Shown here: positions 9,918-52,721 of the stretch, piece after piece
Layout: every line of letters starts with the position of its first letter
Position numbering within the stretch: position 1 is the first letter of the stretch
Origin: Armatimonadota bacterium
Lineage (GTDB): Bacteria; Armatimonadota; Hebobacteria; CAIYQO01
Length of the DNA stretch: 64,000 nt
Assembly (NCBI GenBank): GCA_020060775.1
Contig: JAGUZN010000211.1
Location: 6,224 to 70,223 of the forward strand
Reading direction: 5' to 3'
Made by a program: the position numbers and the translations under genes
The notes under the pieces: model-generated
Told to the model about the DNA's origin: nothing
Databases searched by the model: none
The model's input: only the letters and a program-made list of their open reading frames with translations

Positions 9918-10241
9918 CCTTGACGCTCCCCTCTGTGCTGATCGAGTATGTGCGGTGGTGCTCGCACATACTCGCGAGAGTTTCGCGATCTTGACCCAAG
10001 TGTGCCAGGCAGTTGCGAGGACTGATACAGCGGATGCCTGCCGGACTACTGGCTGGCTCAGGTGGGGTATTCCACGCTAAATCCTCTGATAAGGACATGG
10101 TAAAACATGCGCGATATCAGGGATTACCCTGAATTGTCGGTAGGAATTTCCCCGATACCGTCTGCGTGTCCAGCGCATTGATCGTGGAGCGGCGTGACAT
10201 GAGGTGCAGTGCAGGCAATCCTGGAGGATACTGTGCGGAGA

Positions 10242-10904: not shown

Positions 10905-10913
10905 AGCTCCTCC

Positions 10914-12101
10914 TCACGGTGTCCATAGTGGTGTCTCGGCCCCTTGTACTACATCATCCGGTTGATTCGTCTGCAGGTCAATGGGCACGGCGACGGTCAC
11001 ACGGGTGCCGCCGAGCGGCGATTCATCGATGCGCATGTGGCCTCCCAGGCCGAAGATGCGTTCACCAATGCTGAATAATCCGTAGCTTAAGCCGGCGGCG
11101 GGAGTGGCGATAAAGCCGACGCCGTCATCCTCCACGACAATGCGCGTCTGCTGTTCCCGGTAAGCGATCGTGATGTGTGCGGTGGTCGCTTGTGCGTGTT
11201 TGATGATATTCATGACCAACTCGCGCACCGCACGATAGAGGAAGGCGGAAATCTCGTCAGGCAGTGAACACGGCTCGCCGTGCACGGTGACGGTGATGGC
11301 GAGATGATGCTGTTCAAGCATGCGATCGGCCAACCAGCGGATCGCTTCCTCCAGCCCTAACTCGTAGAGCAGCGGGGGGCTGATTTCTGCAATCAGCGAA
11401 CGCACGCAGGCGATGGCTTCCTCGAGGTAGCCGCGCAAGACGCCGAGTTTCGTCACCGTGGCCACATCGGTGACCGTGGCTTGTAATTCCGCCACTTTCA
11501 TTTTACTGACGGCCAGCAGGGTCCCCAGGCTGTCATGCAGGTCCTGTGAGATGCGCCGGCGTTCTCGTTCTTCCGCACGCGAGAGCTCAGCGGTGAGGGA
11601 ACGAAGTTTGTGTTTGTACGTGCGCAGCCGGTTCTCTACCCGCTTACGCTCGATCGCATAACGGATAGCGCGCTGCAGGAGGTCCTGATGCAGGGCCTGC
11701 TTCCGCAGACAGTCTTGCGCCCCCGCCTGGACGACAGTCAGCGCAAAGGACTCATCATCGCCGCCAATGAGCACGAGGATCGGTACATCTTCGTTGCGAG
11801 CGTGGACAGCGTGGAACGCAGACACGGCCTCAGCGTCAGCGGGATCGAGGGAGAACAGCACGAGGTCGGCCACATGATCGTGCAAAAAGGCACACCCCTC
11901 GGCAACCGTCGCCACCTGTTGACTGCAAAACCGGGCGCCCGGCACCTGGTCGAGCGCCGTGCGAATCAGATATGCATCGACCGGGTTGGGCTCAATGAGT
12001 AAGACGTGCGTGGCGTGCGTATCCATCCTGATGTGCGCCTGGTCGTGGTCGTTTGCATGTACTTCGCTCATCGCCACGCTCCTGTCGTACCCGTGCGGCA
12101 T
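10914..12101 (-). CDS. Hybrid sensor kinase: an N-terminal receiver (REC) domain, then HisKA_3 and HATPase. There is no membrane sensor domain.
   Basis: A REC-like N-terminus (HVLLIEPNPVDAYL...DLVLFSLD...), then the HisKA_3 H-box (ERRRISQDLHDSLG) and an ATPase domain (VMNIIKHAQA...VEDDGVGF). It lies immediately upstream of the NarL RR, with a 9-bp gap. Confidence 0.85.
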   Translation of the reverse strand: MPHGYDRSVAMSEVHANDHDQAHIRMDTHATHVLLIEPNPVDAYLIRTALDQVPGARFCSQQVATVAEGCAFLHDHVADLVLFSLDPADAEAVSAFHAVHARNEDVPILVLIGGDDESFALTVVQAGAQDCLRKQALHQDLLQRAIRYAIERKRVENRLRTYKHKLRSLTAELSRAEERERRRISQDLHDSLGTLLAVSKMKVAELQATVTDVATVTKLGVLRGYLEEAIACVRSLIAEISPPLLYELGLEEAIRWLADRMLEQHHLAITVTVHGEPCSLPDEISAFLYRAVRELVMNIIKHAQATTAHITIAYREQQTRIVVEDDGVGFIATPAAGLSYGLFSIGERIFGLGGHMRIDESPLGGTRVTVAVPIDLQTNQPDDVVQGAETPLWTP

Positions 12102-12362: not shown

Positions 12363-13505
12363 CTATATCCGGTGAGCGTACGCAACAATCGCATCACTAA
12401 TCTCTTCCACCCCTTCGAGCGGCATATGCGAGTACATGGGCAAGGCCAGGCCGCGGGCGGCGAGTTGTTCGGCGACGGGCAGGCGGCCTGCACAGCCGGG
12501 TTCGATATCGCGAAACAGCACCTGGCTATGCAACGCGGGATAGAAGTAGCGCTTTGTCTCGATGCCTTCTTCCTTCAAGTATGCGTAGAGCGCGTCTCTG
12601 GTGAACGGCGCTTCGTGGGGATCGATCTGAATCACTACGTAGTTACGCGTGGAAGTCGCATGGGCTGGGATCATCTGGAAACTGATGCCCGGTATCTCGG
12701 CAAGGCGTGCCTTGTACATCTCCATGATACGCGTGCGATTGGCCGCCCAGATGTCCAGACGGGCGAACGACCAGCGTGCGATGAGGGCGTTGACCTCTTC
12801 GATACGCGCCGAAAGCCCCAGCCAATGCATTTCCTGACCATCAGGCCCCTTGCCATAATCTCGCATGCGCCGTAGTAGCGCCGCCAGTTCATCGTCATTG
12901 GTGGTGATCAGGCCGCCCTCCATGGCAGTGACGACCTTTGTCGGGCTCATACTGAAGGCTTCGCCGCGCCCAAAGTTACCCACGGCGGTGCCGCGATAGG
13001 TGCTGCCAATACCCTGGGCGCTATCGAAGAGTAGGGCCAAGCCATACTGCTCTGCCAGCCGCTGATACGCCTCCATCTCGCCCGGTACGCCAAAGATGCA
13101 CACTGGGAAGATGGCCGAGGTGCGCCGGGTGATGAGTGCTTCCGCTTGGGCGGCATCGAGGGTGAACGTCTCGGGGTCGCTATCGCAAAAGACGGGCGCC
13201 AGATCGTTCCACAGCAAGGCCTGCGCGGTGGCGGCAAAGGTAAAGCTGGGCGTGATGACTTCGCTACCGCGCGGCAATTCCAAGGCCTTTAATAGCAACA
13301 TTAACCCAGCAGTGCCGCATGAGACGGCAATGGTATGTCGGACGCCTAGGCGGGCACATACTTCCTCTTCCAGTAAACTTACTTGCTGCCCAACCGTGAC
13401 GCGTCCACCGGCCAGAATGGCGGCAAACTCTTCGTGGATCTCCGCGGGGTGCGGCAATGTGGGACAGACAATGGGATACCGAACCGGGGCGACAGCGATG
13501 GCCAT
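12363..13505 (-). CDS. DegT/DnrJ/EryC1/StrS-family PLP-dependent sugar aminotransferase (PglE-like).
   Basis: Has a family-typical fold-type I aminotransferase sequence (…SMSPTKVVTAMEGGLITTND…). It is followed on the minus strand by acetyltransferase and PglC-like genes. Confidence 0.9.
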   Translation of the reverse strand: MAIAVAPVRYPIVCPTLPHPAEIHEEFAAILAGGRVTVGQQVSLLEEEVCARLGVRHTIAVSCGTAGLMLLLKALELPRGSEVITPSFTFAATAQALLWNDLAPVFCDSDPETFTLDAAQAEALITRRTSAIFPVCIFGVPGEMEAYQRLAEQYGLALLFDSAQGIGSTYRGTAVGNFGRGEAFSMSPTKVVTAMEGGLITTNDDELAALLRRMRDYGKGPDGQEMHWLGLSARIEEVNALIARWSFARLDIWAANRTRIMEMYKARLAEIPGISFQMIPAHATSTRNYVVIQIDPHEAPFTRDALYAYLKEEGIETKRYFYPALHSQVLFRDIEPGCAGRLPVAEQLAARGLALPMYSHMPLEGVEEISDAIVAYAHRI

Positions 13506-13620: not shown

Positions 13621-14232
13621 TCAGCGCCGAAGCCGAGCGGGATTGCCAAACACAACGGCATTATCGACAATATTACTCACGACGACACTGCCCGCGCCGA
13701 TGGTACAGTCATGTCCGATCATTATGCCCGGTTTCACACAAGCGCCAATACCCATCAGGGTCTCGGCGCCAATATGGACCTGGCCTGCCAGACGTACCCC
13801 GGGCGCGAGGTGCACGGCATCGCCGATGACGCAGTCGTGATCAACTGAGCAGGCGGTATTCAAAATGACGGCACGGCCGACCTGTGTTCGCGCGTTGACG
13901 ACAGCCTGTGCCATGACGACCGTCCCTGCACCGAGCACAGCACTGGGGGAGACGACCGCACTCGGGTGAATGAGCACCGGCAGCTCCCACCCACACTCTC
14001 CAGCACGATGCAGCAGGTGCTCACGTACGGGATTGCTCCCGATTGCCAGTGCAACGCAAGCATGCGGTGGAACTGCCGTCAACGGACCCAACACCGGATA
14101 GCCGAGAACGTGTTGCGTATGCATAGCGGGATTATCATCATAGAAGCCGGCAATCGGCCACGAGAGCGCTTCTACGATCTCCGCGACGACGGCAGCATGT
14201 CCGCCTGCTCCGATAATGTGGAGTTCACGCAT
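13621..14232 (-). CDS. Hexapeptide-repeat sugar N-acetyltransferase (PglD/NeuD family).
   Basis: An N-terminal Rossmann-like segment (MRELHIIGAGGHAAVVAEIVE) is followed by left-handed beta-helix repeats. It lies between the PglC-like and PglE-like genes. Confidence 0.8.
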   Translation of the reverse strand: MRELHIIGAGGHAAVVAEIVEALSWPIAGFYDDNPAMHTQHVLGYPVLGPLTAVPPHACVALAIGSNPVREHLLHRAGECGWELPVLIHPSAVVSPSAVLGAGTVVMAQAVVNARTQVGRAVILNTACSVDHDCVIGDAVHLAPGVRLAGQVHIGAETLMGIGACVKPGIMIGHDCTIGAGSVVVSNIVDNAVVFGNPARLRR

Positions 14233-14243
14233 ATCACAGCCTC

Positions 14244-14867
14244 TTACTTATGCAAGGAAGCCTCAGGCAAATTTACACTGCCTTGAAAAGGCTCCATGGT
14301 CACATGCCCCTGTTGGGAAATGCCATCGCGTCGGAACACTTTGCCAAGGGTGGCAAACAGAATCTTCACATCCAGCAAGAACGTCTGGTGTTCGACGTAC
14401 CAGGCATCCAGTTCAAACCGCTCCTCCCAGCATAAGGCGTTGCGCCCATTGATCTGCGCCCATCCCGTGATGCCGGGTTTCACCGCCAACCGCGTCGCTT
14501 GCCGCGGACTATAGCGATCGTTGTACTCAAGCAATAGCGGGCGTGGTCCCACCAAGCTCATCTCCCCGCGGAGCACGTTGAACAACTGGGGCAACTCATC
14601 CATGCTGGTTGAGCGGATGAATGCACCGACCGGGGTCATACGCTCATGATCGGGTAGCAACTGGCCTTCAGCATCTCGAGCATCGGACATCGTGCGGAAT
14701 TTGAAGAGCGTAAATGGATGACCATGCCGTCCTGCCCGCGATTGACGAAATAGGACGGGGCTGCCCATGCTCCGCCAGATGCACAGGGCTACAACAGCCA
14801 TGACCGGCGATAGTACGGTGAGCATGACCAGTGCAACGATAATGTCAACGAGACGCTTCATCCACAT
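14244..14867 (-). CDS. Small monotopic phosphoglycosyltransferase (PglC/WbaP C-terminal-domain family); initiates a glycan on undecaprenyl phosphate.
   Basis: Contains the conserved core ...FKFRTM...DELPQLFNVLRGEMSLVGPRP... It is ~200 aa with a single N-terminal hydrophobic helix. Confidence 0.88.
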   Translation of the reverse strand: MWMKRLVDIIVALVMLTVLSPVMAVVALCIWRSMGSPVLFRQSRAGRHGHPFTLFKFRTMSDARDAEGQLLPDHERMTPVGAFIRSTSMDELPQLFNVLRGEMSLVGPRPLLLEYNDRYSPRQATRLAVKPGITGWAQINGRNALCWEERFELDAWYVEHQTFLLDVKILFATLGKVFRRDGISQQGHVTMEPFQGSVNLPEASLHK

Positions 14868-14897: not shown

Positions 14898-16163
14898 TTA
14901 CCCGACCCTCTCTATCGTGACAGGATCCTTCATGCCGGAAGGTTCGGTTGCCCCGAGCAACTCGAGCAAATGGTTCTCCAGCTTGAGCGCTAACCGGCGC
15001 ATATCGTGATGTTCGATGACCCACGCCCGCCCGCGTTCTCCCATCGCCACACGCTCCGCTTCCGTGAGATCGCGCAGTTGGAGGATTGCCTGGGCGAGAG
15101 CATGCGGATCTTCGGGAGGGATGGAAATGCCGGACTGTGCCTCCTCGACCGGATTATTCAAACTGCGACAGGCAAAAATCGTGGGGCGCCCGGCATAGAG
15201 ATAATCAAAAAGCTTATTGGCGCTCACCCCGTAGCGAGCGAGTACCGGCATATCGCGCAGGATGAAAATGAAGGCGTGGCTCTGGGAGAAATGTCTCGTC
15301 AACTCCGTCTTGGCGACCGGGGGATGGAAGGCCACATTCTGCAGACCGGCCGCTTCCGCCGACTGCTGGAGCATCACTTTCTGCGGACCATCACCGACCA
15401 GGCGCACCTCGATGCCGGCCCCCTGCGGATGGGCCTGCAATAGTTTAGCCGCCTCAATCACCGTACCAAGCCCGTTCGCCGGACCATGGGATCCGAGGAA
15501 TGACACGACAAAGCGATTCGCTGCGGGGGGCGGCGAATCGATGGCGGCGTAGAGTGTGGTGTCGATGCCATTCGGGATCTGCCAGATATGTTCACGCGGG
15601 ATGCCATGTTGCTCCAGGTAGCCCACCATACCCGGAAAGAGTGCGATCACCCTGTCCGCATGTCGGTAGAGATTGCGTTCGATGTGGCGCAAGTACCAGT
15701 ATATGGGGTGGCGCGTGGACAACGCGCCGACATCGACCAGCGACTCCGGCCAGACGTCGCGTACTTCAAAGACGAACGGGACGCCGAAGCAGCGGGCAAG
15801 TCGCAGCCCGGCATCGGCCGCATGCAGGTGCACACAGGAGCCGATGATCACCTCAGGCGCAGGAAGGTCAGCAGTGGCTCGGCACACACTCTGCCGGTAA
15901 CTCAGCATATTCACGAATCGCTGCACCGTGTTTCGGTACGGCGTGGTGCGCACGAAGCGAAAGCGCACGCCCTCGTACATACGATCGACGTACAAGTCTC
16001 CATCCGGAAGGTCAAAAGCCCGTGCCTGCCCATGGGGCGTTGCGGAGGCGAAGATCGTCACCTCATGCCCGCGCTGCTGCAGATAGCGCGCCAGCGTGGC
16101 ATGACGTGTCCCACCGGCGCCGTCAAGCGGAACAGCGTAGTGATTTAAGATCCAAATGCGCAT
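14898..16163 (-). CDS. Glycosyltransferase family 4 (GT-B fold).
   Basis: Has GT4 architecture. The start MRIWILNHYAVP is chosen at 16163, 18 nt inside the track ORF start. Confidence 0.85.
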   Translation of the reverse strand: MRIWILNHYAVPLDGAGGTRHATLARYLQQRGHEVTIFASATPHGQARAFDLPDGDLYVDRMYEGVRFRFVRTTPYRNTVQRFVNMLSYRQSVCRATADLPAPEVIIGSCVHLHAADAGLRLARCFGVPFVFEVRDVWPESLVDVGALSTRHPIYWYLRHIERNLYRHADRVIALFPGMVGYLEQHGIPREHIWQIPNGIDTTLYAAIDSPPPAANRFVVSFLGSHGPANGLGTVIEAAKLLQAHPQGAGIEVRLVGDGPQKVMLQQSAEAAGLQNVAFHPPVAKTELTRHFSQSHAFIFILRDMPVLARYGVSANKLFDYLYAGRPTIFACRSLNNPVEEAQSGISIPPEDPHALAQAILQLRDLTEAERVAMGERGRAWVIEHHDMRRLALKLENHLLELLGATEPSGMKDPVTIERVG

Positions 16164-16201
16164 GCAGAACTTCTCCAGCACTCATGACTTCGTGTGCACG
16201 T

Positions 16202-17287
16202 TCACGGGGTAAGTGTATGGACGATATGCGTCGAGGCATGCCCTTCACCGTAATACGGACCGGGGTCCGGCAAGGCGGGCGGATGATCAATCAACCGCTC
16301 GATCGCGTGAGCCAAACGGTCGGCATCCGCGCCGACAAGCTGATTCGCCCCGGCCTCGACCGTTTCCACCCATTCAGTTTCATCGCGCAGGGTGACGCAG
16401 GGCACACGGTAGAAGAACGCTTCCTTTTGCACCCCCCCAGAATCCGTTGTGATCGCGAAGGCCGATTCTTCCAACGCCACCATCTCAAGATAGCCGACAG
16501 GGTCGATCAACGTCAACCGTGAGAGGTATTGCTCCGTCAGCCCCTGACCTTCTATGATATGGCGCGTGCGCGGATGCAGGGGCAGCACGACGGGCATATG
16601 CTCGGCCACGCGCTGCAACCCGGTGAATATTTCGCGCAGCCGGTGCGGGTCATCGGTGTTTTCCGCGCGGTGGACGGTGGCAAGCACGTACGACTGTGGC
16701 GTCAGCCCGAGCCTGGCCAGGATGTGCGTCTGTTGCCGCGCCTTCTCACGGTAAAAGAGCGAGGCATCGTACATCACATCCCCCACCAGGTGGATGCGTG
16801 CTTCGGGAATGCCCTCGCGGCGCAGGTGCGCACTGGCCACCTCGGTCGGCGTGAAAAGGAGATCGGACACCTGGTCGGTGAGCACGCGATTGATCTCCTC
16901 TGGCATGCGCCGGTTGAAGGAACGCAGCCCGGCCTCGACATGCGCCACCGGGATATGCAGCTTCACTGCGGCCAATGCCCCCGCCAGCGTCGAGTTCGTA
17001 TCGCCGTAGACGAGCACCCAGTCCGGCTGGCGTTCGAGCACGACCTGCTCAATGCCTTCAAGCATGCGTCCGGTTTGCGCGCCGTGGCTGGCCGAGCCGA
17101 TGCCCAGGTGATAATCCGGACGCGGGATCTCCAACTCGTCGAAAAAGACATCCGACATGTTGGCATCGTAATGCTGCCCGGTATGCACCAGGATTTCGTC
17201 CATCCCGTCACTTGCGCGCAGAACGCGCGAGACGGCAGCCGCCTTGATGAACTGCGGCCGTGCGCCGATGATGGTCACGATCTTCAT
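16202..17287 (-). CDS. wecB: UDP-N-acetylglucosamine 2-epimerase (non-hydrolysing), WecB-like.
   Basis: Begins MKIVTIIGARPQFIKAAAV...HTGQHYD...GDTNSTLAGALAA and carries the WecB signature along the full length. Confidence 0.92.
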   Translation of the reverse strand: MKIVTIIGARPQFIKAAAVSRVLRASDGMDEILVHTGQHYDANMSDVFFDELEIPRPDYHLGIGSASHGAQTGRMLEGIEQVVLERQPDWVLVYGDTNSTLAGALAAVKLHIPVAHVEAGLRSFNRRMPEEINRVLTDQVSDLLFTPTEVASAHLRREGIPEARIHLVGDVMYDASLFYREKARQQTHILARLGLTPQSYVLATVHRAENTDDPHRLREIFTGLQRVAEHMPVVLPLHPRTRHIIEGQGLTEQYLSRLTLIDPVGYLEMVALEESAFAITTDSGGVQKEAFFYRVPCVTLRDETEWVETVEAGANQLVGADADRLAHAIERLIDHPPALPDPGPYYGEGHASTHIVHTLTP

Positions 17288-18402
17288 CCTAACAACTCCT
17301 CGTACACGCTCAATAACTTCCGGCTCTCGCGATCCCAGTTATAGTGTTCTCGCACCGCCTGTCTGCCGCGTTCCCCCATCGCCTCGGCTTCTGCCGGATG
17401 CTCGAGGATCCACTGCATGGCGTCGGCGATCGCCCCTGCATCTTGCGGATCGACCAGTAGCCCGCACTGATGCGTCTCGACAATTGCTCGCCATCGTGGA
17501 AAATCGGAGGCGATCACCGGCAACCCGGCAGCCATATATTCAAACAGCTTATTCGGCTGCGCATCAGTATGATTGGGCACCGGATGGAAGGTGACGATGC
17601 CGGCACGGGCGGCGTCTGCCAGGTGCAACATGGCTTCCCGCGTAATCCACCCGTGAAATCGCACCCGTTTCCATCCGGTTTGTTCGCGCAGTTCCTGCTC
17701 CAAGCTGTCAGGACGAATCACCCCTGCCAGGTCGAGACTCGCATCAAGCACGGCGGGAAATTGGGCCAGGGCATCGACGATTTCAGTAATGCCGCGCAGG
17801 CGAGTAATCCCTCCTGCATACCAAAACCGAGGTGGGCGTTGCGCGTAAAGCGTGCCGGCGACGAATTCGATCTCCTCGGCCAGTGGGAAATTGGATACCA
17901 CGACAGTTTTTACGGGAGGCAGATGCTCAGCGATGGCCGGGGTGGCCGCCACCACGCGCTGAAACAGCGCTGTTCCCACCACTTCAGCAACTCCTGCCAG
18001 CCGACCGACCGCTCTACGCAGCGACTTTGGAATCCATCCCTTGGTCAGGATTTGCCGTGCGACGTCTTCATGGACATCATAGATGACGCGCTTGCCGCAC
18101 AAGCGGAGCAGAATGCCAACCGGGATGAGTTCGGGGTCATGGAAATGGTAGAGATCCGCTTTGAGTCGCAGCGCAGCCGTGAACACCTGCCGGGTAGTGG
18201 CCACCATCCGCTGGCGACGCCCTGCAGGTTTGGGCACAGCACGGAGGGTCACGTCATGCATGTGCCCCTCACCCTCGTGCGGCGCCACGAGCGTCACCTC
18301 GTAACCGGCACGCGAAAGCGACCGACATTCTTTATGGTAGATGCGTACATCGTCAGGGCGGTGTACGGTGGTTAGATGGCAAATACGTCGTGAGTCGGTC
18401 AT
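17284..18402 (-). CDS. Glycosyltransferase family 4.
   Basis: A GT4 sequence (…FHGWITREAM… EX7E-like C-terminal region). It overlaps the wecB start by 4 bp. Confidence 0.85.
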   Translation of the reverse strand: MTDSRRICHLTTVHRPDDVRIYHKECRSLSRAGYEVTLVAPHEGEGHMHDVTLRAVPKPAGRRQRMVATTRQVFTAALRLKADLYHFHDPELIPVGILLRLCGKRVIYDVHEDVARQILTKGWIPKSLRRAVGRLAGVAEVVGTALFQRVVAATPAIAEHLPPVKTVVVSNFPLAEEIEFVAGTLYAQRPPRFWYAGGITRLRGITEIVDALAQFPAVLDASLDLAGVIRPDSLEQELREQTGWKRVRFHGWITREAMLHLADAARAGIVTFHPVPNHTDAQPNKLFEYMAAGLPVIASDFPRWRAIVETHQCGLLVDPQDAGAIADAMQWILEHPAEAEAMGERGRQAVREHYNWDRESRKLLSVYEELLG

Positions 18403-19334
18403 GCGGATGCCGGCACCTCTCTACGATAGCGAATTTTATGCAGCAGGGCGTTAATGCGCTTACATGCTGAATGATAATACCCATCCCACTGCCGATGGCA
18501 TGCGCGCAGCGGTTCGCTGTTATGGACTGCTGCCAGAAAAGCGAGTTGGGTCACATGCAAGCGGTGATAGGCGACCGTTGCCGGATTACGCCGTCCTCGT
18601 GGGCTCACATGCAGATCGTAGGCCGACCAATAGCCGAGATCCCAGCGCGACCAGCAGGATTCGAGCGTCCGAATATAGTGCGACAGCCCTGCGTGTTCAG
18701 CTGCCGACGCATCCACGGTACTGAGATCTGTCAGGCCAATGAGCGCATAAAAAAAGCCATTGAGTGTATGCGCAGGCGTGGTTGATGGGTACTCTTCGAG
18801 GAAGGGCATGGTCCCCTCTATCATTGAACGCACCCCGCCTGCGCCGATGTCGAGTGTCATTGGCGCAGTAGCACGGCGTGCCTGTGCGAGGTAGCGTTCA
18901 TCCTCTGTCATTCGATAAGCGCGCACCAACATGCTGATGCCCTCACCCTGCGACATGCACGATATCCAGGGGGCTTTCAAGTCGTCCCAGTCAAACTCGT
19001 AGCGCCAGCAAGCATCATCCGCACGCATGAACCAGTCAGCCATCTGCAAGAAAAACGTGCGGCTCCTGTCATCCTGGCGAGTGATCCAGCGGTTATAGTG
19101 CGCCAAGCCGTATGCCGCAATGCGCGTGGGATTATACTGTCGCCCTACGGACCGGTATTGCCGCACCGGGACCCCGTGTTCATCCTTTGGGTGATAATAT
19201 GTAGATTCCTGCTCAAGGGTAAACTCCAGATCAAGAGGGTAGGCATGACTGGTGAGTGCCTGAGGGTGCAGCCCAAAGTCTGTGCTGCCGGTCAGGGCGC
19301 TCAGAATATCGCGTAATATCTTATGAACCGGCAT
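18399..19334 (-). CDS. D-glucuronyl C5-epimerase C-terminal-domain-like protein (putative uronic-acid epimerase).
   Basis: The motif ...WISCMSQGEGISMLVRAY... resembles the Glce C-terminal domain. It is about 310 aa and sits in glycan-locus context. Confidence 0.5.
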   Translation of the reverse strand: MPVHKILRDILSALTGSTDFGLHPQALTSHAYPLDLEFTLEQESTYYHPKDEHGVPVRQYRSVGRQYNPTRIAAYGLAHYNRWITRQDDRSRTFFLQMADWFMRADDACWRYEFDWDDLKAPWISCMSQGEGISMLVRAYRMTEDERYLAQARRATAPMTLDIGAGGVRSMIEGTMPFLEEYPSTTPAHTLNGFFYALIGLTDLSTVDASAAEHAGLSHYIRTLESCWSRWDLGYWSAYDLHVSPRGRRNPATVAYHRLHVTQLAFLAAVHNSEPLRACHRQWDGYYHSACKRINALLHKIRYRREVPASA

Positions 19335-20682
19335 GGCACCCCTCCGGAGTTGAGCGTGTCGTGGTAGGCGGGAAGAACCGCGTAATCATCTGTCGTAAGG
19401 GCAAACGATTCAGGACAACCAGAAGAAGCGGGAGTGACAGTAACCCTCTTCCAAGGAGAACAGAATATAAATTGGACATAAAAATATACATGAGTGCAAC
19501 TGATATCGTAGCGCGCACGGCGATACCGACCGCATCGGTGTTCCAGCGATCAAAAAATATCTGTAACCAGATAAGACAAGCACAGACGGCTAGTGTGCCC
19601 AAAAAGACACCTGGCATACCCCAATCTGCGTAAAAGGTGGCAAAGTATGAGGCGTTGACCAAGCCGCCGGGAATAGTTGCATTGTAATAGTTATCATAAA
19701 TGAAAGAAGCGACGTTGATATAATCTGTCCCAACGACGAGAGAGACAAAGCGATTTGATGCGCCACACAAGTGTGGAAAATAGTTTGTAAAGGCGTCGAA
19801 GTACACTGCGCTTGTTTGTGAGGGAACCCAGGTGACTCGGCGGATCAAGTTTTCGAATGCAGATTGTACGGCAGCAGAACCGTGCAAGCCGAATAGTAGC
19901 GGGTAGATGAATGCTGGAACTAACATACCCCCAACACCGAGCACTATAACCGGCGTAGATAACTTACCTCGGTTGCTCATGTAGAAAGATAATCCGGCGC
20001 ACAGGAGAATGACGGCTAACGGTGCTTTGGCTGCAGTAAACAGCGAGAAGAGCGCTCCAGCTAGTATGACAGCCAAATAGTGAGAAACAGAAATGCGTTT
20101 TCTAACCAGCAAAGTTGTAATAAATGCAATATATACCGGGTAACCTAGTGCACGGTTGTAAGCATAGGCAACCGAAAGAATTGGATTTATATTACTAGTG
20201 AGTCCCCCAATGCGAAGAAACATCGTTTCTGTTGACTGCCCTGGGTTGTCAATAAGGAAAAAGAATGCGATCCCAGAAGCCCCTTTATCGAAGACAAAGA
20301 CAAAAGGTAGCAGCACAAACAATACCGATAATAATGGTGTAATATTTGTGAATACCACATCGCGATATGTCATACTAACTTTACCAAAACTACACTCGAT
20401 ATCACGAAATGAGTGCCCCAACACAGGGAGACCAAAACCGACAACAAATAGTACAATATAAGGGATACAAATTACTGATATAATGTAATGGACATTGCGT
20501 ATTTCGTGCTGGTATATCGAGAATGCCTGTAAGTAAATCAACACGATATACCCAACCATAAATATGGTCGGAAAAGAAAGTTTTTTGTATGGACCAAAGA
20601 GCAAGCGCGTCAACCAGAGCATAATGACAGGGTTGACGATGTAATACAAGAAAGCCAATATATCTTGGATGCTCATTGACAT
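19321..20682 (-). CDS. Polytopic membrane protein; a putative Wzy-type repeat-unit polymerase. It lies in the AT-rich segment.
   Basis: There are more than 10 predicted hydrophobic helices and no other homology. Its position between the GT genes and wzx is typical for wzy. The start is set at the internal ATG (20682) after the upstream gene stop; the track start 20775 overlaps capK by 86 bp. Confidence 0.5.
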   Translation of the reverse strand: MSMSIQDILAFLYYIVNPVIMLWLTRLLFGPYKKLSFPTIFMVGYIVLIYLQAFSIYQHEIRNVHYIISVICIPYIVLFVVGFGLPVLGHSFRDIECSFGKVSMTYRDVVFTNITPLLSVLFVLLPFVFVFDKGASGIAFFFLIDNPGQSTETMFLRIGGLTSNINPILSVAYAYNRALGYPVYIAFITTLLVRKRISVSHYLAVILAGALFSLFTAAKAPLAVILLCAGLSFYMSNRGKLSTPVIVLGVGGMLVPAFIYPLLFGLHGSAAVQSAFENLIRRVTWVPSQTSAVYFDAFTNYFPHLCGASNRFVSLVVGTDYINVASFIYDNYYNATIPGGLVNASYFATFYADWGMPGVFLGTLAVCACLIWLQIFFDRWNTDAVGIAVRATISVALMYIFMSNLYSVLLGRGLLSLPLLLVVLNRLPLRQMITRFFPPTTTRSTPEGCHAGS

Positions 20683-20689
20683 TCTTTCT

Positions 20690-22057
20690 TCACACGACAG
20701 CTTCCCTTGGTAAACGTGAGATAACTGTTCTGCGCTTACCGGATTCCCCTCTGTCAATACCTTCGACATACTCAAACGCGATCTGTATGTCAGATCCGAT
20801 CATACGAACGATACAGTCACGTAAGTAGTCTTCGTCGTCTGAGGAATACTTCGGACACTTGACAATATTAACTGTCAAGTGTTTCCAGTCATGCTGAACG
20901 ATTTGGTATTCTTTCACGGTGGGACGATCGCTAAAGACAATGGTGAACGCTGGAGCTGTCACTATCATTCCTTCAGGGGTACGTATACAGTCATCCACAC
21001 GGCCTTCAAGCGAGGCAATTCTTGGTAAATGACGCCCGCAAGGGCAAGAGGTACCTTCATCAGCAAAAGTACCGATATCGCCAATTTCGTAGCGAATGAA
21101 CGGAAAAGCATAATTATGCAAATCCGTAACGACTATGCGCCCGGTCACCCCTGGTGGGCACGGACGCCCTTGATCATCGAGAATTTCGATATATACGCAA
21201 TCAGCATTTATGTGCATGCCTCGATGCACTTCACACTCTGCCGCAATACTCATTTCACGACTACCATAGGCATCAAACACCTTGCAGGAGAATACTTCCT
21301 CTATAATTGCTCTTTGCTGTGGAAATAGAGTATCTGACGAAGTCATAATCGTGTTGACATTGGCTGAAATATTATTATCTTTCATTAGATGTGCAAATTG
21401 CGAAATAGCGGACGCGTAGCCACAAAGTGCCACAGGTTTAAATGTGTGTAGTTCGTGCAGAAAATTTTTTAGAGTTTCTGGGGATAACTGATAGGCAGAT
21501 ACCCAACGAAACCTTAAAAGACGACTGGTGATTCTTGATACGAGTCTCTGCATAAGAAAATAGTCGAAATGGGATCCACTAACCTTAATATACTTCTCTC
21601 CGATGTGTAATCCTGCCCAAGCACTGTTCCGAATCACTGCAGCCCTGATGTAGTCTAGTGCAGCAGTATTATGAAAAAAACGCGTTGGGACGCCTGTCGA
21701 ACCACCTGTTCTCCCTGCGACGAGTTGCTCTATTGGAAAAGCTGTGGAGATCATTCTATCAAAGTTTTCATTGATCCTCGCTTTTGTAAGAATTGGGAGC
21801 TGTTGAAGATCCTTCAACGAGGTGAGCGCTTTCGGATTAAGGCCAGACTGTTGTAGGGTTGTCGTATAGTACGGGACGGTGGCAGCAGCATGCTGAAGCA
21901 ACGCCTGTAGGCGGTCGAGTTGGTATGATGCAATTTGTTCTGCAGACCACCATTGTTGCTCATCGAGTTCTGCGATCCGCCGACTCAAGTTACGTCCACG
22001 CAAGCGGTCGAAGCAGGGGTAAAGCACACGCTTTGCTAATACAGGATACCAGTCCAT
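20690..22057 (-). CDS. CapK / coenzyme F390 synthetase / phenylacetate-CoA-ligase-like adenylate-forming enzyme.
   Basis: Has the PaaK-like fold signature (…GGSTGVPTRFFH… …YGSREMS…). Homologues are recurrent in capsule loci (CapK). Confidence 0.75.
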   Translation of the reverse strand: MDWYPVLAKRVLYPCFDRLRGRNLSRRIAELDEQQWWSAEQIASYQLDRLQALLQHAAATVPYYTTTLQQSGLNPKALTSLKDLQQLPILTKARINENFDRMISTAFPIEQLVAGRTGGSTGVPTRFFHNTAALDYIRAAVIRNSAWAGLHIGEKYIKVSGSHFDYFLMQRLVSRITSRLLRFRWVSAYQLSPETLKNFLHELHTFKPVALCGYASAISQFAHLMKDNNISANVNTIMTSSDTLFPQQRAIIEEVFSCKVFDAYGSREMSIAAECEVHRGMHINADCVYIEILDDQGRPCPPGVTGRIVVTDLHNYAFPFIRYEIGDIGTFADEGTSCPCGRHLPRIASLEGRVDDCIRTPEGMIVTAPAFTIVFSDRPTVKEYQIVQHDWKHLTVNIVKCPKYSSDDEDYLRDCIVRMIGSDIQIAFEYVEGIDRGESGKRRTVISRLPREAVV

Positions 22058-23392
22058 CTATCTATTACCTTTAGCGACTAGATGCAGAATTGTAATGGCC
22101 ATTACGACATTAATCAAGATGCCTGCCAAGCTGTATAGACCAATACCCAACAGAGCATCATTCATGAACAACGCTATTGCAATAACGCTTGCACGAAGAG
22201 AGAAACCGAAGACTTCGATGACCGTCAGCCAACGCTGTGCACCGATTACCTGAAACACGACTGAAGTAGGCTGTACAGCCAGTACCACTAACAGCCACGG
22301 CAAAATAAAACGTGCATACTCACCGGAAACACGGTAGTTCTCGCCAAAGACAACGGCAAATAGATCAGGTGAGTACACAAAGAGTATAACCGCAGGGATC
22401 AGAGCTAGCCCTATCAAGGAGGCATATACCATGAGCACTAACTTTTTCAGGCTATTACCGGCATGATGATAAGTACACGCCTTCTGATAAAACACGGTAG
22501 TAAAGGACTGACTGACTAATGTAATTGGGATGGCCAATACGCGAAACGCCAGAAAGTAGTGCCCGGCGACTGCCGTACCGAAGGCAATGGGAAATAACAG
22601 CCCGGGCAGGTGCATGGCGGCTCCACCGAGCAGGGCATTCACGGTGGAGAACCGGGGAAAGTCGCGAAACGTTCGAGCGACCGTGCGCATTCGCGGGAGA
22701 CTGATGCCGCTAAAGGCCGCTCGGTTATCCCGCCATGCGCCACGCGCAAGCGAGAACACTCCCCCACTGCGACCGATAATATCTCCACACAACAACCCGA
22801 ATGCCCCTGCGTGCAACAGGCCAAGTCCGACTTGGGATAGCACCATGCCGATGCCCTGGGTAATTTTCGTCGTTGAGATCCGAGCGTACGATTGTTGCCG
22901 GATAGCGAGAAAATTGAACGCTTGATACCCCCCGGACCCCAGCAGGCCCAGGGGAATAAGGAATATAAACTTGCCGATGGATGGGTCGCCGATCAGTTGT
23001 GCAATGCGTCCACCGAATAACAACGTGACCACCAGTGTCGCCAGAGACATCATTAGCAGTAGCGCGATCGAGAGCGCAAGCAGATTCGATGCTTGTCGAT
23101 CACGCTTGGCCACCGGGATTGCCTGTTCGTAGCGCCACGACCCCAGGATAACCAATACGGAAACGACGGCCGTGAAGAACGAGAGCACCCCAAAGTCTTT
23201 CGGGTCATACAAGCGGCTAAGAATAGGAGATGACGCCGCGGCGACGACTTGAGCAATGGCTGTCCCTCCGGCAACCATTGTGACATTCCACCCGAAGCGT
23301 CCGCGGCCAAATACTGATCTCAATAGCGAAGGGACCGCAGAAATGGAAAACGGCCTTCCCGTTACCGTACTGACGGGGAGCGTATCAGGCAT
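22058..23392 (-). CDS. Wzx-type polysaccharide flippase (MOP/PST family).
   Basis: 12-TM topology, and the N-terminal region (…VTMVAGGTAIAQVVAAASSPILSRLY…) is typical of this family. The start is chosen at MPDTLPVS (23392), just after the Wzz stop. The track start 23605 would overlap Wzz by 220 bp. Confidence 0.8.
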   Translation of the reverse strand: MPDTLPVSTVTGRPFSISAVPSLLRSVFGRGRFGWNVTMVAGGTAIAQVVAAASSPILSRLYDPKDFGVLSFFTAVVSVLVILGSWRYEQAIPVAKRDRQASNLLALSIALLLMMSLATLVVTLLFGGRIAQLIGDPSIGKFIFLIPLGLLGSGGYQAFNFLAIRQQSYARISTTKITQGIGMVLSQVGLGLLHAGAFGLLCGDIIGRSGGVFSLARGAWRDNRAAFSGISLPRMRTVARTFRDFPRFSTVNALLGGAAMHLPGLLFPIAFGTAVAGHYFLAFRVLAIPITLVSQSFTTVFYQKACTYHHAGNSLKKLVLMVYASLIGLALIPAVILFVYSPDLFAVVFGENYRVSGEYARFILPWLLVVLAVQPTSVVFQVIGAQRWLTVIEVFGFSLRASVIAIALFMNDALLGIGLYSLAGILINVVMAITILHLVAKGNR

Positions 23393-24826
23393 GGGTTCCC
23401 TCGTGAAGCTGTTGAGCATCCAACACCACCTGGGTGCGGAACCATTCACGATACGGCAGGAGCGTGGCGAACGCCAAACCGAGCAAGGCCAGGAGCACAA
23501 TGATACGTACTCGACCAGCGCTATCCGGTTGCTCGGGCAACTCGGCGTGGTCCAGCAACACGAAATTCGGTCCTCGTGACTGCTCGACAATGCGCGCTTT
23601 TTCAAGTTCCTGGCGCAGCAACTTCACGGTAGCGACGTTTGCCTCTAACTCTGCCTGCAATCGGGCATACGCCGCTTGCTGCTTGGGTAACCTTTCAACG
23701 GTTGTTTGCATCTTGCGTAAAGCGGCATCCAGCCCCTCGGCACGCGCATGGCTGGCTGCCGCCTGGATCACTGCGGGGTACAATACCGGGGATCCACCTT
23801 GATCGAGTGCAGAGAGTTGACGATCAATTTCTGCATTGAGGACCTTCTGGGCACGCTGCAATTCGGCTTGTTTGGCCTGTACATCCGGGTGGTGAGCGGT
23901 CAATTTCTCTGACAGCAGCGCCAACTCAGTCTCGATTTTCGTGACCTGTTGGTAAAGCTGTGCAAGCGTATTACCTACTGCCGGGTTTGGATCAATGCAC
24001 GCTTCAACCATCTTGCCGGCCACGTCGGTCATCACGCGCACCTGTCGCATGGCTGTGGAGGCCTCGAGATCTGCCGCAGTTTTGTCGCTTTGCATCTTGG
24101 CATACTGTTCGGCCAATGCTCTCGCCTGGTCAGGCATGGATACAATATGGTTGGCCCGTTGAAAATCCAACATGGCCGACGTCGCAACCCGGAGTTTGCG
24201 ATCAGCCTCCTGCACTTGCTGTTCCAGAAAAGCAACACTCTGTTCAGCAGGATTGATGCCGAGTTCTTTGGAGAGTACCTGGAGTTCATGCACCAGTGCT
24301 GACGCAACCCTGTAGGCGGTCTGCGGCTGACGGTCACGGAAGCCAACATATAACTCGCCCTGCTTACCGACCTTAATCTCCATATTCTCGCGGAGCTTCT
24401 CCAGTGTTTCGCGATCGTCCAGCTTCCACGCGTTCGCCAAGTCAAGGGGGTCATTCGCATCGTGATGCAATTGATGCAGTACCTCGCGCAACGATCGGTT
24501 GCTCTCAAGAATCAGGCTGGCCGTGACAGCACTGGTGCCAGGTTGGGGAACCATTAAGGCCCCTTCCAGTAAGGGCAGACTGGGTAGGTCACCGCTTCCA
24601 CCACCACCGAGTAAGCTCATTCGGGAGGCGGGGGCGGAAGGGAAGAGCAGGGTCGCTGTTGATGTATAGGTCGTTGGACGCAGTACGGCAATGACGATGC
24701 CCAGGAGAAGACCGATAGCCATACCGACTAACAGCGTTTTCCGGTACTTCCACACAATGGACAGGAAGCGGGGAGGCATAGGCACTGTTGGGCATTCCGC
24801 AAGGTGATCGATTTGCTGTGTCATGG
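23385..24826 (-). CDS. Wzz/GumC/ExoP-family polysaccharide co-polymerase (chain-length determinant). There is no C-terminal kinase domain.
   Basis: Two terminal TM helices flank a long coiled-coil periplasmic region. The start is MTQQIDHL (24826) with an AGGA upstream. Confidence 0.7.
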
Positions 24827-25353
24827 TCAGTCCTGCAGCTTCAGTTCGGTCGATTCGGCGACTTTCGGGGGAAGGTCGCCAGGGAATGTTCTCCTGATGG
24901 ATGTCATCGAGTAGGGGCCGCCCGAAAATCGGGCAACGCATTTCCCCATCAGTTCACTTCAACAATAGTGGCAAGACGAGTGCCCGATTTACCTGGGGGG
25001 TGTGCACTATATCTCTCGCCTATCAGGGTACCGCGCGTTGACGTGCCGCAAACCTGCGACCTGCGTTCCGCCCGGAATAACTGACAGTCCGATACCGGGG
25101 CGTGCGCAAAGCCGCTGTCAGTCCTGCGCCCTGTGTTCGACAACACCGGTAAGCACCAGTACTTCTCTCGTGACTGCTGGCTATTGTACCCGCTTTGGAC
25201 AAGCGTTTCAAGCCATCCCCCAAGGTGCCTGCTCTTCTCTGCCATGCTGCCAGGCAGTTCCACGTGATGCGTGATCTGTCCACGCATACCCTTTGACATG
25301 TCGCATACCTCCTACCCCGTACCGGCTTGATCGGCGTGCTCGCATGATTGAGT

Positions 25354-25385
25354 CAGGGTGCAGGTTGGGTGAAAGCTGCACCCTG
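25354..25385 (+). promoter_or_regulatory. Strong hairpin in the 5' leader of the divergent aminotransferase gene (CAGGGTGCAG-12 nt-CTGCACCCTG). A second hairpin, CGTGCAC-tct-GTGCACG, lies at ~25437-25453.
   Basis: A perfect 10-bp inverted repeat sits in a 715-bp divergent intergenic region between wzz and degT2. Confidence 0.35.
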
Positions 25386-25541
25386 TGGTTCCCGTTTATC
25401 GGGACTCCTGCACTCCCCGTCACCATGGGTGTACAACCGTGCACTCTGTGCACGAACCTTGTCGCGACTTCGGCGATTACCGATCCATGGGCGGTCTACA
25501 CTGGAGATAACGCGGGTTCCAGGGGAAGGATGTGGCGGACC

Positions 25542-26702
25542 ATGAGGGTCAAGTCGTTTTTACCGTTTGCGCCGCCGGCGATCGGCGAGGAAGAGATCGA
25601 AGAGGTGGTGGACAGTCTGCACTCGGACTGGATCACCACCGGGCCGAAAGTGCAGCAGTTCCAGCAGGCGTTCGCGGAGTATCTGGGGTCACCAGGGGCG
25701 CTGGCGTTGAATTCCTGCACGGCGGGGCTGCACACGGCGCTGGCGACGCTGGGCATCGGGCACGGCGACGAGGTGATCACCACGCCGATGACCTTTGCGG
25801 CATCGGTGAATGTGATCGAGCATGTGGGGGCAACGCCGGTGCTGGCGGACGTGGAGCCGGATACGCTGAACATCGACCCGGCGCGAGTGGAACCGGCGAT
25901 CACGCCGCGCACGCGCGCCCTGCTCATCGTGCATTACAGCGGGCACCCGGCGAACCTGGCGGCACTGCGCGACCTGGCTTACCGTCACGGCCTGGCCATG
26001 GTCGAAGATGCCGCCCATGCGTTGCCGGCACGCTACCGCGGCGAACTGATCGGCGCTTCATCCACCCCGACCGCCTTCAGCTTTTACGCCACCAAGAATA
26101 TGACGACCGCCGAGGGAGGCATGCTCACCGGCGATCCGGAGTTCATCGAGCGCGCGCGCATGATCAGCCTGCATGGGATGAACCGCGATGCCTGGAAGCG
26201 CTATGGCCAGGGCGGCAACTGGTTCTACGAGGTGGTGTTCCCCGGATTCAAATATAACATGACGGATATCCAGGCGGCCATGGGCATTCACCAGTTGCAG
26301 AAGCTGGAGCAGTTTCAACGGCGCCGGCAGCAGATCGTGCAGGCGTACACCGCCGCCTTCGCCGGAGAGGATACACTGGAGACGCCCACCGTGCGTCCGG
26401 ATGTCGAGCATGCCTGGCATCTGTACGTGCTGCGGCTGCGCCATGCAGCGCTCACCATCTCGCGTGAACAGTTCATCGAGGAGTTGGGACAGCGGAATAT
26501 CGGTACTTCGGTGCATTTCATCCCGATTCACCTGCACCCCTATTACCGCGACAAATACGGGTACCGCCCGGGCGATTTCCCGGTCGCCTACGAACACTAT
26601 CAGCGCATGCTTAGCCTGCCGCTGCACCCGCGTATGTCGGAAGAAGATGTGGCGGATGTGATCGACGCGGTGCTGGATGTGACGAGGCACTACCACCGAT
26701 GA
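25542..26702 (+). CDS. DegT/ArnB/PglE-family sugar aminotransferase (copy 2).
   Basis: Begins MRVKSFLPFAPPAIGEEEIEEVVDSLHSDWITTGPKV... and contains ...SFYATKNMTTAEGGM... GGAAGGA lies 12 nt upstream of this ATG. The track start 25293 adds an 83-aa GC-rich extension. Confidence 0.9.
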   Translation: MRVKSFLPFAPPAIGEEEIEEVVDSLHSDWITTGPKVQQFQQAFAEYLGSPGALALNSCTAGLHTALATLGIGHGDEVITTPMTFAASVNVIEHVGATPVLADVEPDTLNIDPARVEPAITPRTRALLIVHYSGHPANLAALRDLAYRHGLAMVEDAAHALPARYRGELIGASSTPTAFSFYATKNMTTAEGGMLTGDPEFIERARMISLHGMNRDAWKRYGQGGNWFYEVVFPGFKYNMTDIQAAMGIHQLQKLEQFQRRRQQIVQAYTAAFAGEDTLETPTVRPDVEHAWHLYVLRLRHAALTISREQFIEELGQRNIGTSVHFIPIHLHPYYRDKYGYRPGDFPVAYEHYQRMLSLPLHPRMSEEDVADVIDAVLDVTRHYHR

Positions 26703-27295
26703 CCATGGCGAAACGGTGCTTCGATCTCTGGTGGACGGTGCTGGGGCTCGTGCTGCTCTGCCCGTTGTTCCTGCTCATCGCGCTGGTGATCTGGCTGGAC
26801 GACCGCGGCCCGGTCTTTTACCGGCAGGTGCGCGTGGGACGGAACGGCATGCCGTTCCGCATCTGGAAGTTTCGCACCATGACGGTCAACGCCGACCGCA
26901 TCGGCGCGGCACTGACGGTAGGGCGCGACCCGCGCATCACGCGCATTGGCCACTGGCTGCGCGCATCCAAGCTGGACGAGTTGCCGCAACTCTTCAACGT
27001 GCTCACCGGCGAAATGAGCCTGGTGGGTCCGCGCCCGGAGGTGCCGGATTACGTGGCGCACTACACCACCGAACAACAGCCCGTGTTGGTCCTCATACCC
27101 GGCATCACCGATCCGGCCTCAATCACCTATCGCGATGAGAGCGAGGTGCTGGGGGCTGCGGAGGATCCACAACGCCTCTATCTGCAGGAGATCATGCCGG
27201 CGAAAATCCGCCTGAACCTCGACTATGCCGAACGCGCGAACGTATTCACCGATTTCACAGTGATCCTGCACACCTTCGCCAGGATCGTCCGCTAA
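26699..27295 (+). CDS. Small monotopic phosphoglycosyltransferase (PglC-like, copy 2).
   Basis: Shares the …FRIWKFRTM…LDELPQLFNVLTGEMSLVGPRPE… core. It overlaps the aminotransferase stop by 4 bp. Confidence 0.88.
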   Translation: MTMAKRCFDLWWTVLGLVLLCPLFLLIALVIWLDDRGPVFYRQVRVGRNGMPFRIWKFRTMTVNADRIGAALTVGRDPRITRIGHWLRASKLDELPQLFNVLTGEMSLVGPRPEVPDYVAHYTTEQQPVLVLIPGITDPASITYRDESEVLGAAEDPQRLYLQEIMPAKIRLNLDYAERANVFTDFTVILHTFARIVR

Positions 27296-27464
27296 CTCCC
27301 CTACCCTGCCCATCATAAATAATTTCATGGTGGTCTGCAACTGTGTTTCCCGGCGCGCGTATGAATGGGTGTAGGACGCCACAGCCCCCAGCGCGATCCG
27401 CCCATCCTGTTTGAGTTCGGGCGCACGGCCCCCCGACGCCCACGTTGCCGAAAGGAGGCACACC

Positions 27465-52530: not shown

Positions 52531-52721
52531 CCCCCGGCGTCAAGGAAAAGCAAACTTTGGTTCTTACCAATCCACCAACTGCCTGTCGCAGAGAAATGTT
52601 ACCCTCAAGCCCTTCCTGACAGAAGGAATCAGTGCACCATCGTTGAAGATTCTGGAGGAGATCATTCCATGCGCATTCAGGCGTGGTTTTACTCTTACCT
52701 CTTGATGAAAGGGACTACCCC

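Follow-up and report, generated by a model that had tools for sequence, protein, structure and literature searches.

A stretch of 64,000 nucleotides from an Armatimonadota bacterium (contig JAGUZN010000211.1, positions 6,224 to 70,223; in the following termed the window) carries on its minus strand, from 24941 to 12363, an operon of eleven densely packed genes, as judged from the list of open reading frames (ORFs) and from profile searches against Pfam and NCBIfam. The operon is a Wzx/Wzy/Wzz-dependent, O-antigen-like surface-polysaccharide cluster (Table 1). The two genes that concern us most encode a protein of the glucuronyl C5-epimerase (GlcE) type and a CapK/VpsH-like adenylate-forming ligase of the PaaK family. 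An earlier note on this DNA, made from the sequence alone, had singled out both and had predicted from them a uronic acid-containing polymer whose carboxylate is amidated or acylated, for example with an amino acid. The ligase gene is located between wzx and wzy, with its ATG abutting the wzx stop codon, and the epimerase gene overlaps both the stop of wzy and the start of the following glycosyltransferase gene and is preceded by a GGAGG ribosome-binding site 8 nucleotides upstream.

Table 1. Genes of the polysaccharide cluster and neighboring features, in positions of the window. TM, transmembrane; GC, guanine plus cytosine content; GT, glycosyltransferase; PCP, polysaccharide co-polymerase; UDP, uridine diphosphate
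Feature	Position	Strand	Evidence
Wzz/PCP chain-length determinant	23385..24941	-	Pfam Wzz and GNVR; two TM segments, both terminal
Wzx flippase	22058..23605 (probable start 23392, from start analysis)	-	Pfam Polysacc_synt_3, E 2e-17
CapK/VpsH-like PaaK-family adenylate-forming ligase, 455 residues, soluble	20690..22057	-	Profiles, PDB matches, fold
Wzy-like repeat-unit polymerase	19321..20775 (probable start 20682)	-	TIGR04370, E 1.5e-9, slightly under cutoff; GC 0.445
GlcE-type (PF06662) uronyl C5-epimerase, 311 residues, soluble, helical catalytic domain only	18399..19334	-	Pfam, PDB, fold
GT4 glycosyltransferase, GT4a	17284..18402	-	Pfam GT4 domains
WbpI-type UDP-2,3-diacetamido-2,3-dideoxy-glucuronic acid 2-epimerase	16202..17287	-	Pfam Epimerase_2; PDB 8sxv
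GT4 glycosyltransferase, GT4b	14898..16181	-	Pfam; conserved cassette position
Small PglC-type phosphoglycosyltransferase (initiation on undecaprenyl phosphate)	14244..14867	-	Pfam Bac_transf
PglD/NeuD-family amino-sugar N-acetyltransferase	13621..14232	-	TIGR03570, 233.7 bits, over cutoff
DegT-family sugar aminotransferase, PglE-like position	12363..13505	-	Pfam DegT, E 4e-98; PDB matches; conserved cassette position
Divergent trio beside the cluster	25293..28568	+
DegT aminotransferase of the trio	25293..26702	+	Top score ArnB/PseC-like
Signaling genes framing the cluster	8121..12101 and 28629..34296
Methyl-accepting chemotaxis proteins	5831..7945 and 35217..37337		4HB_MCP, HAMP_2, MCPsignal
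GFO/IDH/MocA gene	52683..53777

The epimerase matches PF06662 (C5-epim_C) over profile positions 6–187 of 188 with 156.8 bits (cutoff 23.3; E 6e-46), and it retrieves the zebrafish and human GlcE chains in the PDB with E values of about 1e-27. PMC13308652, citing Debarnot 2019, gives the catalytic residues of GlcE in human numbering as E499, Y500, N510, Y560, and Y578, and in the printed alignments these correspond, in the same order, to E181, Y182, N192, Y239, and Y256 of the window protein. Four of the catalytic positions are invariant and Y182 is nearly so in a family alignment of 24 homologues. When the AlphaFold2 model of the protein (predicted local distance difference test score, pLDDT, 95.7) was submitted to Foldseek, the top eight matches were all GlcE structures (E about 5e-13, root-mean-square deviation 1.8–2.6 Å over roughly 210 columns), and there was no strong match to any other PDB structure. 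The three-domain architecture of the animal enzymes, with beta-hairpin, beta-sandwich, and helical domains, is not found here, as only the helical domain aligns in the protein of 311 residues. Neither the epimerase nor the ligase has a transmembrane segment or a signal peptide. According to PMC13308652, a single bacterial enzyme of the PF06662 family has been characterized so far, and that source cites a bacterial enzyme of this family from Bermanella marisrubri (Raedts 2013). Small PF06662 proteins encoded at O-antigen loci, including V. cholerae proteins of 308–311 residues, were already named as candidates in 2011, and a candidate of 323 residues was linked to the L-iduronic acid-containing O-antigens of E. 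coli O112ab and S. boydii (PMC3068255). The window protein most likely acts as a C5-epimerase on a lipid-linked uronic acid.

Information about the uronic acid itself comes from a neighboring gene. The 2-epimerase of the cluster aligns with a solved UDP-2,3-diacetamido-2,3-dideoxy-glucuronic acid (UDP-GlcNAc3NAcA) 2-epimerase (PDB 8sxv) with 488 bits and an E value of 1.7e-145 (69% identity, 329 columns), compared with only 170 bits for E. coli WecB (1f6d). This comparison rules out a reading of the gene as a 'WecB', i.e., a plain UDP-GlcNAc 2-epimerase, and the 69% identity indicates that the cluster uses UDP-2,3-diacetamido-2,3-dideoxy-D-mannuronic acid (UDP-ManNAc3NAcA), which is a uronic acid. 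The uronic acid that the earlier note had predicted for the polymer is thus indicated by independent evidence. The initiating enzymes match proteins of the PglC and PglD type: the top PDB match of the small phosphoglycosyltransferase is an N,N'-diacetylbacillosaminyl-1-phosphate transferase (E 1e-62), and the acetyltransferase retrieves PglD and the acetyltransferase domain of PglB from the PDB. These matches indicate a diacetamido-trideoxyhexose as the first sugar.

We linked these proteins with information about their genetic environment in three samples: 80 metagenome loci seeded on the epimerase, to which three V. cholerae loci (L163–L165) were added; 80 genome loci seeded on the ligase; and, as a narrow sample, the contexts of the seven nearest ligase homologues (43–51% identity). 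The general picture obtained for the epimerase is a recurrent cassette with the order epimerase, GT4a, 2-epimerase, GT4b, PglC, PglD, DegT, and in some cases PglF, which is present in the three V. cholerae loci and in many metagenome loci, with 40–66% identity to the window proteins. Orthologues of GT4a (40–50% identity) come after the epimerase gene in L001, L083–L086, L096, L100, L113, and L163. The cassette of L083 and L085 is accompanied by an NDP-N-acetylhexosamine dehydrogenase (NDP, nucleoside diphosphate), in L083 also by a WbpB-like oxidoreductase and in L085 also by a hexapeptide acetyltransferase and an aminotransferase, such that the additional genes of the two loci together span a complete route to ManNAc3NAcA. 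Because the epimerase gene conservedly adjoins that for a WbpI-type 2-epimerase, the substrate is probably ManNAc3NAcA and the product its L-gulo isomer (L-GulNAc3NAcA), and glucuronic acid is probably not the substrate. A manno-configured uronic acid is also favored over glucuronic acid because L-gulo diacetamido and guluronic residues are known from O-polysaccharides: for the O:2 polysaccharides of V. anguillarum and V. ordalii, the configuration of the diacetamido hexuronic acid has been revised to gulo (PMC3210612), and repeat units of P. aeruginosa serogroup O2 contain guluronic or mannuronic acid residues (PMC4815439). The O:2 antigens of V. anguillarum and V. ordalii, and related ones, may thus be among the polysaccharides whose L-gulo residues are made by PF06662 epimerases.

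The second protein, the ligase, belongs to the PaaK-like branch of the ANL enzymes because both PDB sequence matches (PaaK-type chains, E 7e-29) and fold matches (E 9e-30) place it there. With the general profile PF00501 it reaches 29.5 bits against a gathering score of 29.9, and PaaK- and F390-synthetase-type NCBIfam models match as well, all far under their equivalog cutoffs, so that the ligase is no PaaK orthologue (TIGR02155, 95.7 bits with a cutoff of 646.3; NF041878, 105.9 bits with a cutoff of 700). PF27533 (CapK_C) is found in the precomputed annotation of an identical protein and of nearly all homologues. All core motifs of the ANL enzymes (A3, A5, the A7 aspartate, the A8 hinge, and the A10 lysine) are present and align to those of PaaK1 or of Bacteroides BT_0428: a P-loop-like TGGSTGVPT (117–125), YGSRE (264–268), YEIGD (323–327), GRVDD (352–356), and K441 within SGKRR. 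These adenylation motifs are invariant or nearly so among 29 homologues. The AlphaFold model (pLDDT 90) superposes on BT_0428, PaaK1/2, 2-hydroxyisobutyryl-CoA ligase (CoA, coenzyme A), ClxA, NatL2, and AjiA1; of these, ClxA, NatL2, and AjiA1 share the PaaK fold and condense their adenylates directly, without CoA thioesters. The ligase also has two cysteine- and histidine-containing motifs, ECxxH..H and CPCGR (C275, H278, H282, C338, and C340), that are invariant in the 29 homologues and may represent a metal site with a structural role; the VpsH-like protein introduced below and BT_0428 have them too, PaaK1 does not. The two gene assignments of the earlier note therefore hold: the ligase is encoded by an intact ORF at the predicted place between wzy and wzx and possesses the P-loop and the adenylation motifs, and the neighbor of the glycosyltransferase genes, likewise an intact gene, retains the fold and the catalytic residues of the C5-epimerases and does not fall into an unrelated family.

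Given these relatives, the ligase could be an ordinary acyl-CoA ligase that provides the cluster's hexapeptide acyltransferase with an acyl-CoA other than acetyl-CoA. We consider this improbable. It is true that phenylacetate- and 2-hydroxyisobutyryl-CoA ligases are the best-scoring characterized relatives, but the NCBIfam equivalog cutoffs for CoA ligases are all missed widely, as just detailed for PaaK, the PglD-like gene of the window is orthologous (38–47% identity) to those of cassettes that contain no ligase, and a carrier protein and an extra acyltransferase are both absent.

A different role is suggested by the biofilm polysaccharide of V. cholerae (VPS). According to work published in July 2026, VpsA, VpsB, and VpsK install N-acetylmannosaminuronic acid (ManNAcA), VpsJ, a proposed C5 epimerase, is needed for its conversion to N-acetyl-L-gulosaminuronic acid (L-GulNAcA), and the PaaK/CapK-like protein VpsH is needed for glycine to be added to the L-GulNAcA of a lipid-linked disaccharide, after C5 epimerization (PMC13463779). 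The gene for VpsH, VC0924, is annotated as CapK (PMC12505965). The statement in the earlier note that such a modification is rarely assigned to a specific enzyme is partly outdated by this work, beyond which literature searches yielded no case of uronamide formation by a PaaK-type enzyme in O-antigens. A tblastn search of plasmid records with the ligase returned a match on a 1.85-Mb Vibrio replicon, that of Vibrio sp. THAF191d, whose ORFs follow the order VpsU-A-B-D-E-F-G-H-I-J-K, and homologues of its VpsJ-position ORF carry the name VpsJ in public records. The ORF in the VpsH position of this vps-like cluster served as stand-in for VpsH. The ligase is homologous to it over residues 5–446 (BLASTP E 5e-34, 25% identity), and both proteins share the P-loop, CPCGR, hinge, and lysine motifs. 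With a profile of the ligase family, the VpsH-position protein reaches 231.5 bits and outscores every solved PaaK enzyme (165.6 bits for BT_0428, 130.8 for PaaK1). Because of this full-length homology, amidation of a carboxylate is the role of the ligase with the best support, with an amide, probably of an amino acid, as the putative product. The possibility that VpsJ is a remote PF06662 homologue was also considered: hhalign returned a match (85% probability, E 6e-6) over 101 N-terminal columns, in the N-terminal third, the catalytic halves showed nothing, and the relationship is unproven. Tyr/Asn spacings that could be matched by eye are not counted as evidence. An ADW...W.Y.FDW motif lies within the N-terminal match of the VpsJ-position protein (L171, 14381–15547) to the epimerase family.

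The same chemistry could run with reverse polarity, the ligase adenylating a carboxylic acid in free form, be it an amino, hydroxy, or aryl acid, and passing it directly to a free amino group of a sugar, for which N-3 of the 2,3-diamino uronic acid and N-4 of the bacillosamine-type sugar would be candidates; this would yield an unusual N-acyl group instead of a uronamide. PaaK-family members usually activate small free acids, and the directly condensing AjiA1, NatL2, and ClxA are among the structural matches of the ligase. The window, moreover, contains a second aminotransferase and no WbpD-type 3-N-acetyltransferase, and N-acyl variants of such sugars are frequent (PMC3210612). On the other hand, a WbpD-like acetyltransferase is present in two of the related ligase contexts (L166 and L170), a PglD-type acetyltransferase is available for N-4, and VpsH, the sole member of the family studied genetically, modifies a carboxylate (PMC13463779). 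We regard this alternative as unlikely, though worth keeping in mind.

All seven contexts of the nearest ligase homologues lie in polysaccharide clusters. L001 has the gene order wzx-ligase-wzy-epimerase-GT4a of the window, and L167 contains ligase, wzx, wzy, and epimerase in a changed arrangement next to PglC, PglD, and DegT. Three contexts encode a 6-dehydrogenase for NDP-sugars, together with WbpB/D/E and Epimerase_2 in L166, with WbpB/D/E in L170, and with Epimerase_2 in the context designated P0009. L168 contains the GT4 genes of the cassette, and L169, a short contig, contains PglC, DegT, PglD, the ligase, and wzx; the epimerase is absent from both. Uronic acid genes thus occur in five of the seven contexts (PF06662 in two, the dehydrogenase in three, two of these with WbpB/D/E), and as the remaining two are short contigs, such genes are found in every context wide enough to judge. 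The amidated carboxylate predicted by the earlier note gains support from this distribution and from the homology to the VpsH-position protein; the amide as such is our proposal. In the broad family, the ligase genes have the neighbors that are typical of large exopolysaccharide loci, among them asparagine synthases, deacetylases, and FemAB-like proteins.

The base composition is uneven across the cluster. A low-GC island between 19400 and 22500 (GC 0.41–0.47 compared with 0.59 for the window; 0.43–0.46 at third codon positions) comprises wzy, the ligase gene, and the 3' part of wzx, and the cluster genes on either side, including that for the epimerase, have a host-like GC content. This pattern suggests that the serotype-specific middle of the cluster was laterally replaced, and the ligase looks like an accessory tailoring gene that is swapped together with wzx and wzy. 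The wzx products of the window and of L001 share 39% identity, and the Wzy-like protein, which has numerous hydrophobic segments, is 43–45% identical to the product of the same-position gene in L001, L083, and L086.

These observations raise the question of whether epimerase and ligase are merely neighbors, the former belonging to a vertically conserved cassette and the latter having arrived with the low-GC wzy and wzx, so that it modifies another residue or is dispensable. The restriction of the GC drop to 19.4–22.5 kb, the co-occurrence counts (0/80 and 1/80, given below), and the absence of the epimerase from several ligase contexts are in line with this explanation. It nevertheless appears distinctly unlikely to us, as ligase, wzx, wzy, and epimerase also occur jointly, outside the window, in L001 and L167 among the seven nearest contexts, where their arrangements differ, and in the distant locus L072 the ligase gene is placed directly upstream of the epimerase gene. 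A pairing of epimerase and ligase as a family-wide rule was rejected on the basis of the same counts, and the link between the two is confined to the nearest subclade of the ligase.

The reading we prefer can be summarized as a pathway. A PglC-type transferase would start the repeat unit by placing a 2,4-diacetamido-trideoxyhexose of the diNAcBac (N,N'-diacetylbacillosamine) type, made by the aminotransferase and the PglD-type acetyltransferase, on undecaprenyl phosphate. Both GT4 enzymes would then add sugars, at least one of them being ManNAc3NAcA derived from the WbpI-type 2-epimerase. By removing and re-adding H5 beside the carboxylate with its Glu/Tyr/Asn/Tyr/Tyr set, the GlcE-type enzyme would convert the D-manno residue to L-GulNAc3NAcA, most likely on the cytoplasmic lipid-linked oligosaccharide. 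The CapK/VpsH-like ligase is proposed to adenylate a uronate carboxylate of the lipid-linked unit with ATP and to transfer it to an amine, probably an amino acid, under formation of an amide. Finally, Wzx would flip the modified unit and Wzy would polymerize it, the polymer being completed by Wzx, Wzy, and Wzz together. For this pathway as a whole, combining C5 epimerization of a diacetamido uronic acid with amidation of its carboxylate, we see even chances; the stage, the residue, the amide, and the amine are the steps that we infer.

Several points weigh against it. Profile searches across the 64-kb window found no NDP-sugar dehydrogenase, no WbpB/D/E, and no PglF-type dehydratase, and the precursor supply must be encoded outside the window. 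None of the 80 epimerase-seeded loci contains the ligase, and a PF06662 gene is present in only one of the 80 ligase-seeded loci (L072). Even among the nearest contexts, L166, L168, L170, and the P0009 context have a ligase without the epimerase. The GC content of the ligase gene (0.46) differs from that of the epimerase gene (0.56, near that of the host), so that the target of the ligase may not be the epimerized residue. The known substrates of GlcE-type enzymes are polymers and not lipid-linked oligosaccharides. As to the comparison with VPS, identity between the ligase and the VpsH-like protein, which is not V. cholerae VpsH itself, amounts to only 25%, and the evidence for the role of VpsH is solely genetic (PMC13463779).

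With regard to the precursor supply, two genes of the window were considered and set aside. The GFO/IDH/MocA gene was not counted as a precursor gene, since it resides far off among unrelated genes, and the plus-strand aminotransferase next to the cluster, examined as a WbpE-like enzyme, scored highest as an ArnB/PseC-like protein. At one end of the cluster (12101–12363), the PglF-type 4,6-dehydratase that usually follows the aminotransferase in cassettes elsewhere is missing; at the other (24941–25300), the WbpA/B/D/E genes that occur upstream of wzx in L083, L085, L166, and L170 are missing.

Related loci provide further information about the variable region. Asparagine-synthase-like amidotransferases, which are associated with uronamide formation, are encoded in the variable wzx/wzy region of L095 (3176–5101), L113 (4354–6297), L072 (7950–9929), and L163 (1–1604), and in related epimerase cassettes such an enzyme occupies the place of the ligase in the window. 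Modification of the carboxylate thus seems to recur as an option among polysaccharides of this kind. Upstream of the cassette in the V. cholerae loci L163–L165 (1–10000), there are genes for an asparagine synthase, a formyltransferase, a FemAB-like acyltransferase, and a HisH/HisF-like pair. Both N-formyl-alanyl groups and uronamides occur in the O:2 structures of V. anguillarum and V. ordalii. In many loci from Ignavibacteria and Zixibacteria, two, sometimes three CapK-like ligase paralogues are arranged in tandem (L023, L026–L032, L038, L041, L049, L051, L070, and L079, at about 10000–12750), which hints at several carboxylate or amine specificities per cluster.

The divergent trio beside the cluster consists of the second DegT aminotransferase, whose ORF probably has its true start near residue 87, a second small phosphoglycosyltransferase of the PglC type, and a high-GC ORF of 385 residues without any Pfam or NCBIfam match. 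The trio may be part of a glycan pathway of its own. Signaling genes frame the cluster. On one side they encode an HD-GYP/PAS protein, a LuxR-type response regulator and a hybrid histidine kinase immediately downstream, and a PAS-GGDEF-EAL protein, and on the other side a MASE1-PAS histidine kinase; this arrangement suggests that the polysaccharide is under the control of cyclic di-GMP or a two-component system. Further outward, two genes for methyl-accepting chemotaxis proteins with the same domains and of nearly equal length lie on opposite strands at a distance of about 27 kb; the two are probably paralogous.

In many O-antigens and biofilm polysaccharides, charge and antigenic properties are shaped by amino acid amides and by L-gulo or L-ido uronic acids, and the enzymes that install such residues mostly lack assigned genes. 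The locus and its cassette supply candidates for both steps. They suggest that chemistry of the VpsJ/VpsH kind is more widespread, maybe by means of a GlcE-type epimerase, and the locus represents a compact system for asking whether the sugar carboxylate that CapK-like ligases adenylate is that of a lipid-linked intermediate. A more far-reaching proposal would be that small cytoplasmic PF06662 proteins are the so far unassigned epimerases for the L-gulo 2,3-diacetamido uronic acids of bacterial O-antigens, with undecaprenyl-diphosphate-linked oligosaccharides instead of polymers as substrates, and that, joined in this lineage by a VpsH-like ligase that makes an amino acid amide of the residue, they constitute a non-orthologous re-invention of the VpsJ/VpsH logic known from VPS. 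We put this forward as a tentative idea that is rather doubtful in its full extent.

How do these enzymes compare with known systems? The window epimerase shares the helical PF06662 domain and the five catalytic residues with animal GlcE (PDB 4PW2 and 6HZZ), the folds superposing at about 2 Å, and differs from it by the absence of the N-terminal beta-hairpin and beta-sandwich domains and of a signal peptide, and by a context that predicts diacetamido-mannuronic acid on a lipid-linked oligosaccharide instead of glucuronic acid in a long polymer. It resembles the small candidates from V. cholerae and E. coli O112ab (Raedts 2011, PMC3068255) in size class (308–323 residues), family, and type of locus, and the V. 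cholerae protein of 308 residues is 42% identical and part of the same seven-gene cassette. The clusters of these two organisms, however, do not contain the CapK-like ligase, and V. cholerae instead has an asparagine-synthase-like amidotransferase upstream. With PaaK and BT_0428 the window ligase has the ANL subfamily, the two-domain fold, and the adenylation motifs in common, but identity amounts to just 22–24%, and its gene resides inside a polysaccharide operon without genes for aromatic catabolism. VPS biosynthesis comes closest: in both cases a Wzx/Wzy pathway is used, a manno-uronic acid derived from a 2-epimerase is (in the window, by our proposal) C5-epimerized to the L-gulo form, and a soluble CapK/PaaK-like protein is tied, again by proposal for the window, to amidation of the carboxylate on a lipid-linked intermediate. 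In contrast to VPS, the window epimerase is of the GlcE type (PF06662) and not of the VpsJ type, the sugar is a 2,3-diacetamido derivative with a WbpI-type 2-epimerase that is 31% identical to the VpsA-position protein, and a PglC-type initiating enzyme and GT4 glycosyltransferases replace VpsL and GT26. Both enzymes are thus of known kinds, and their combination, which parallels the VpsJ/VpsH logic with a different epimerase, is plausible and has a precedent.

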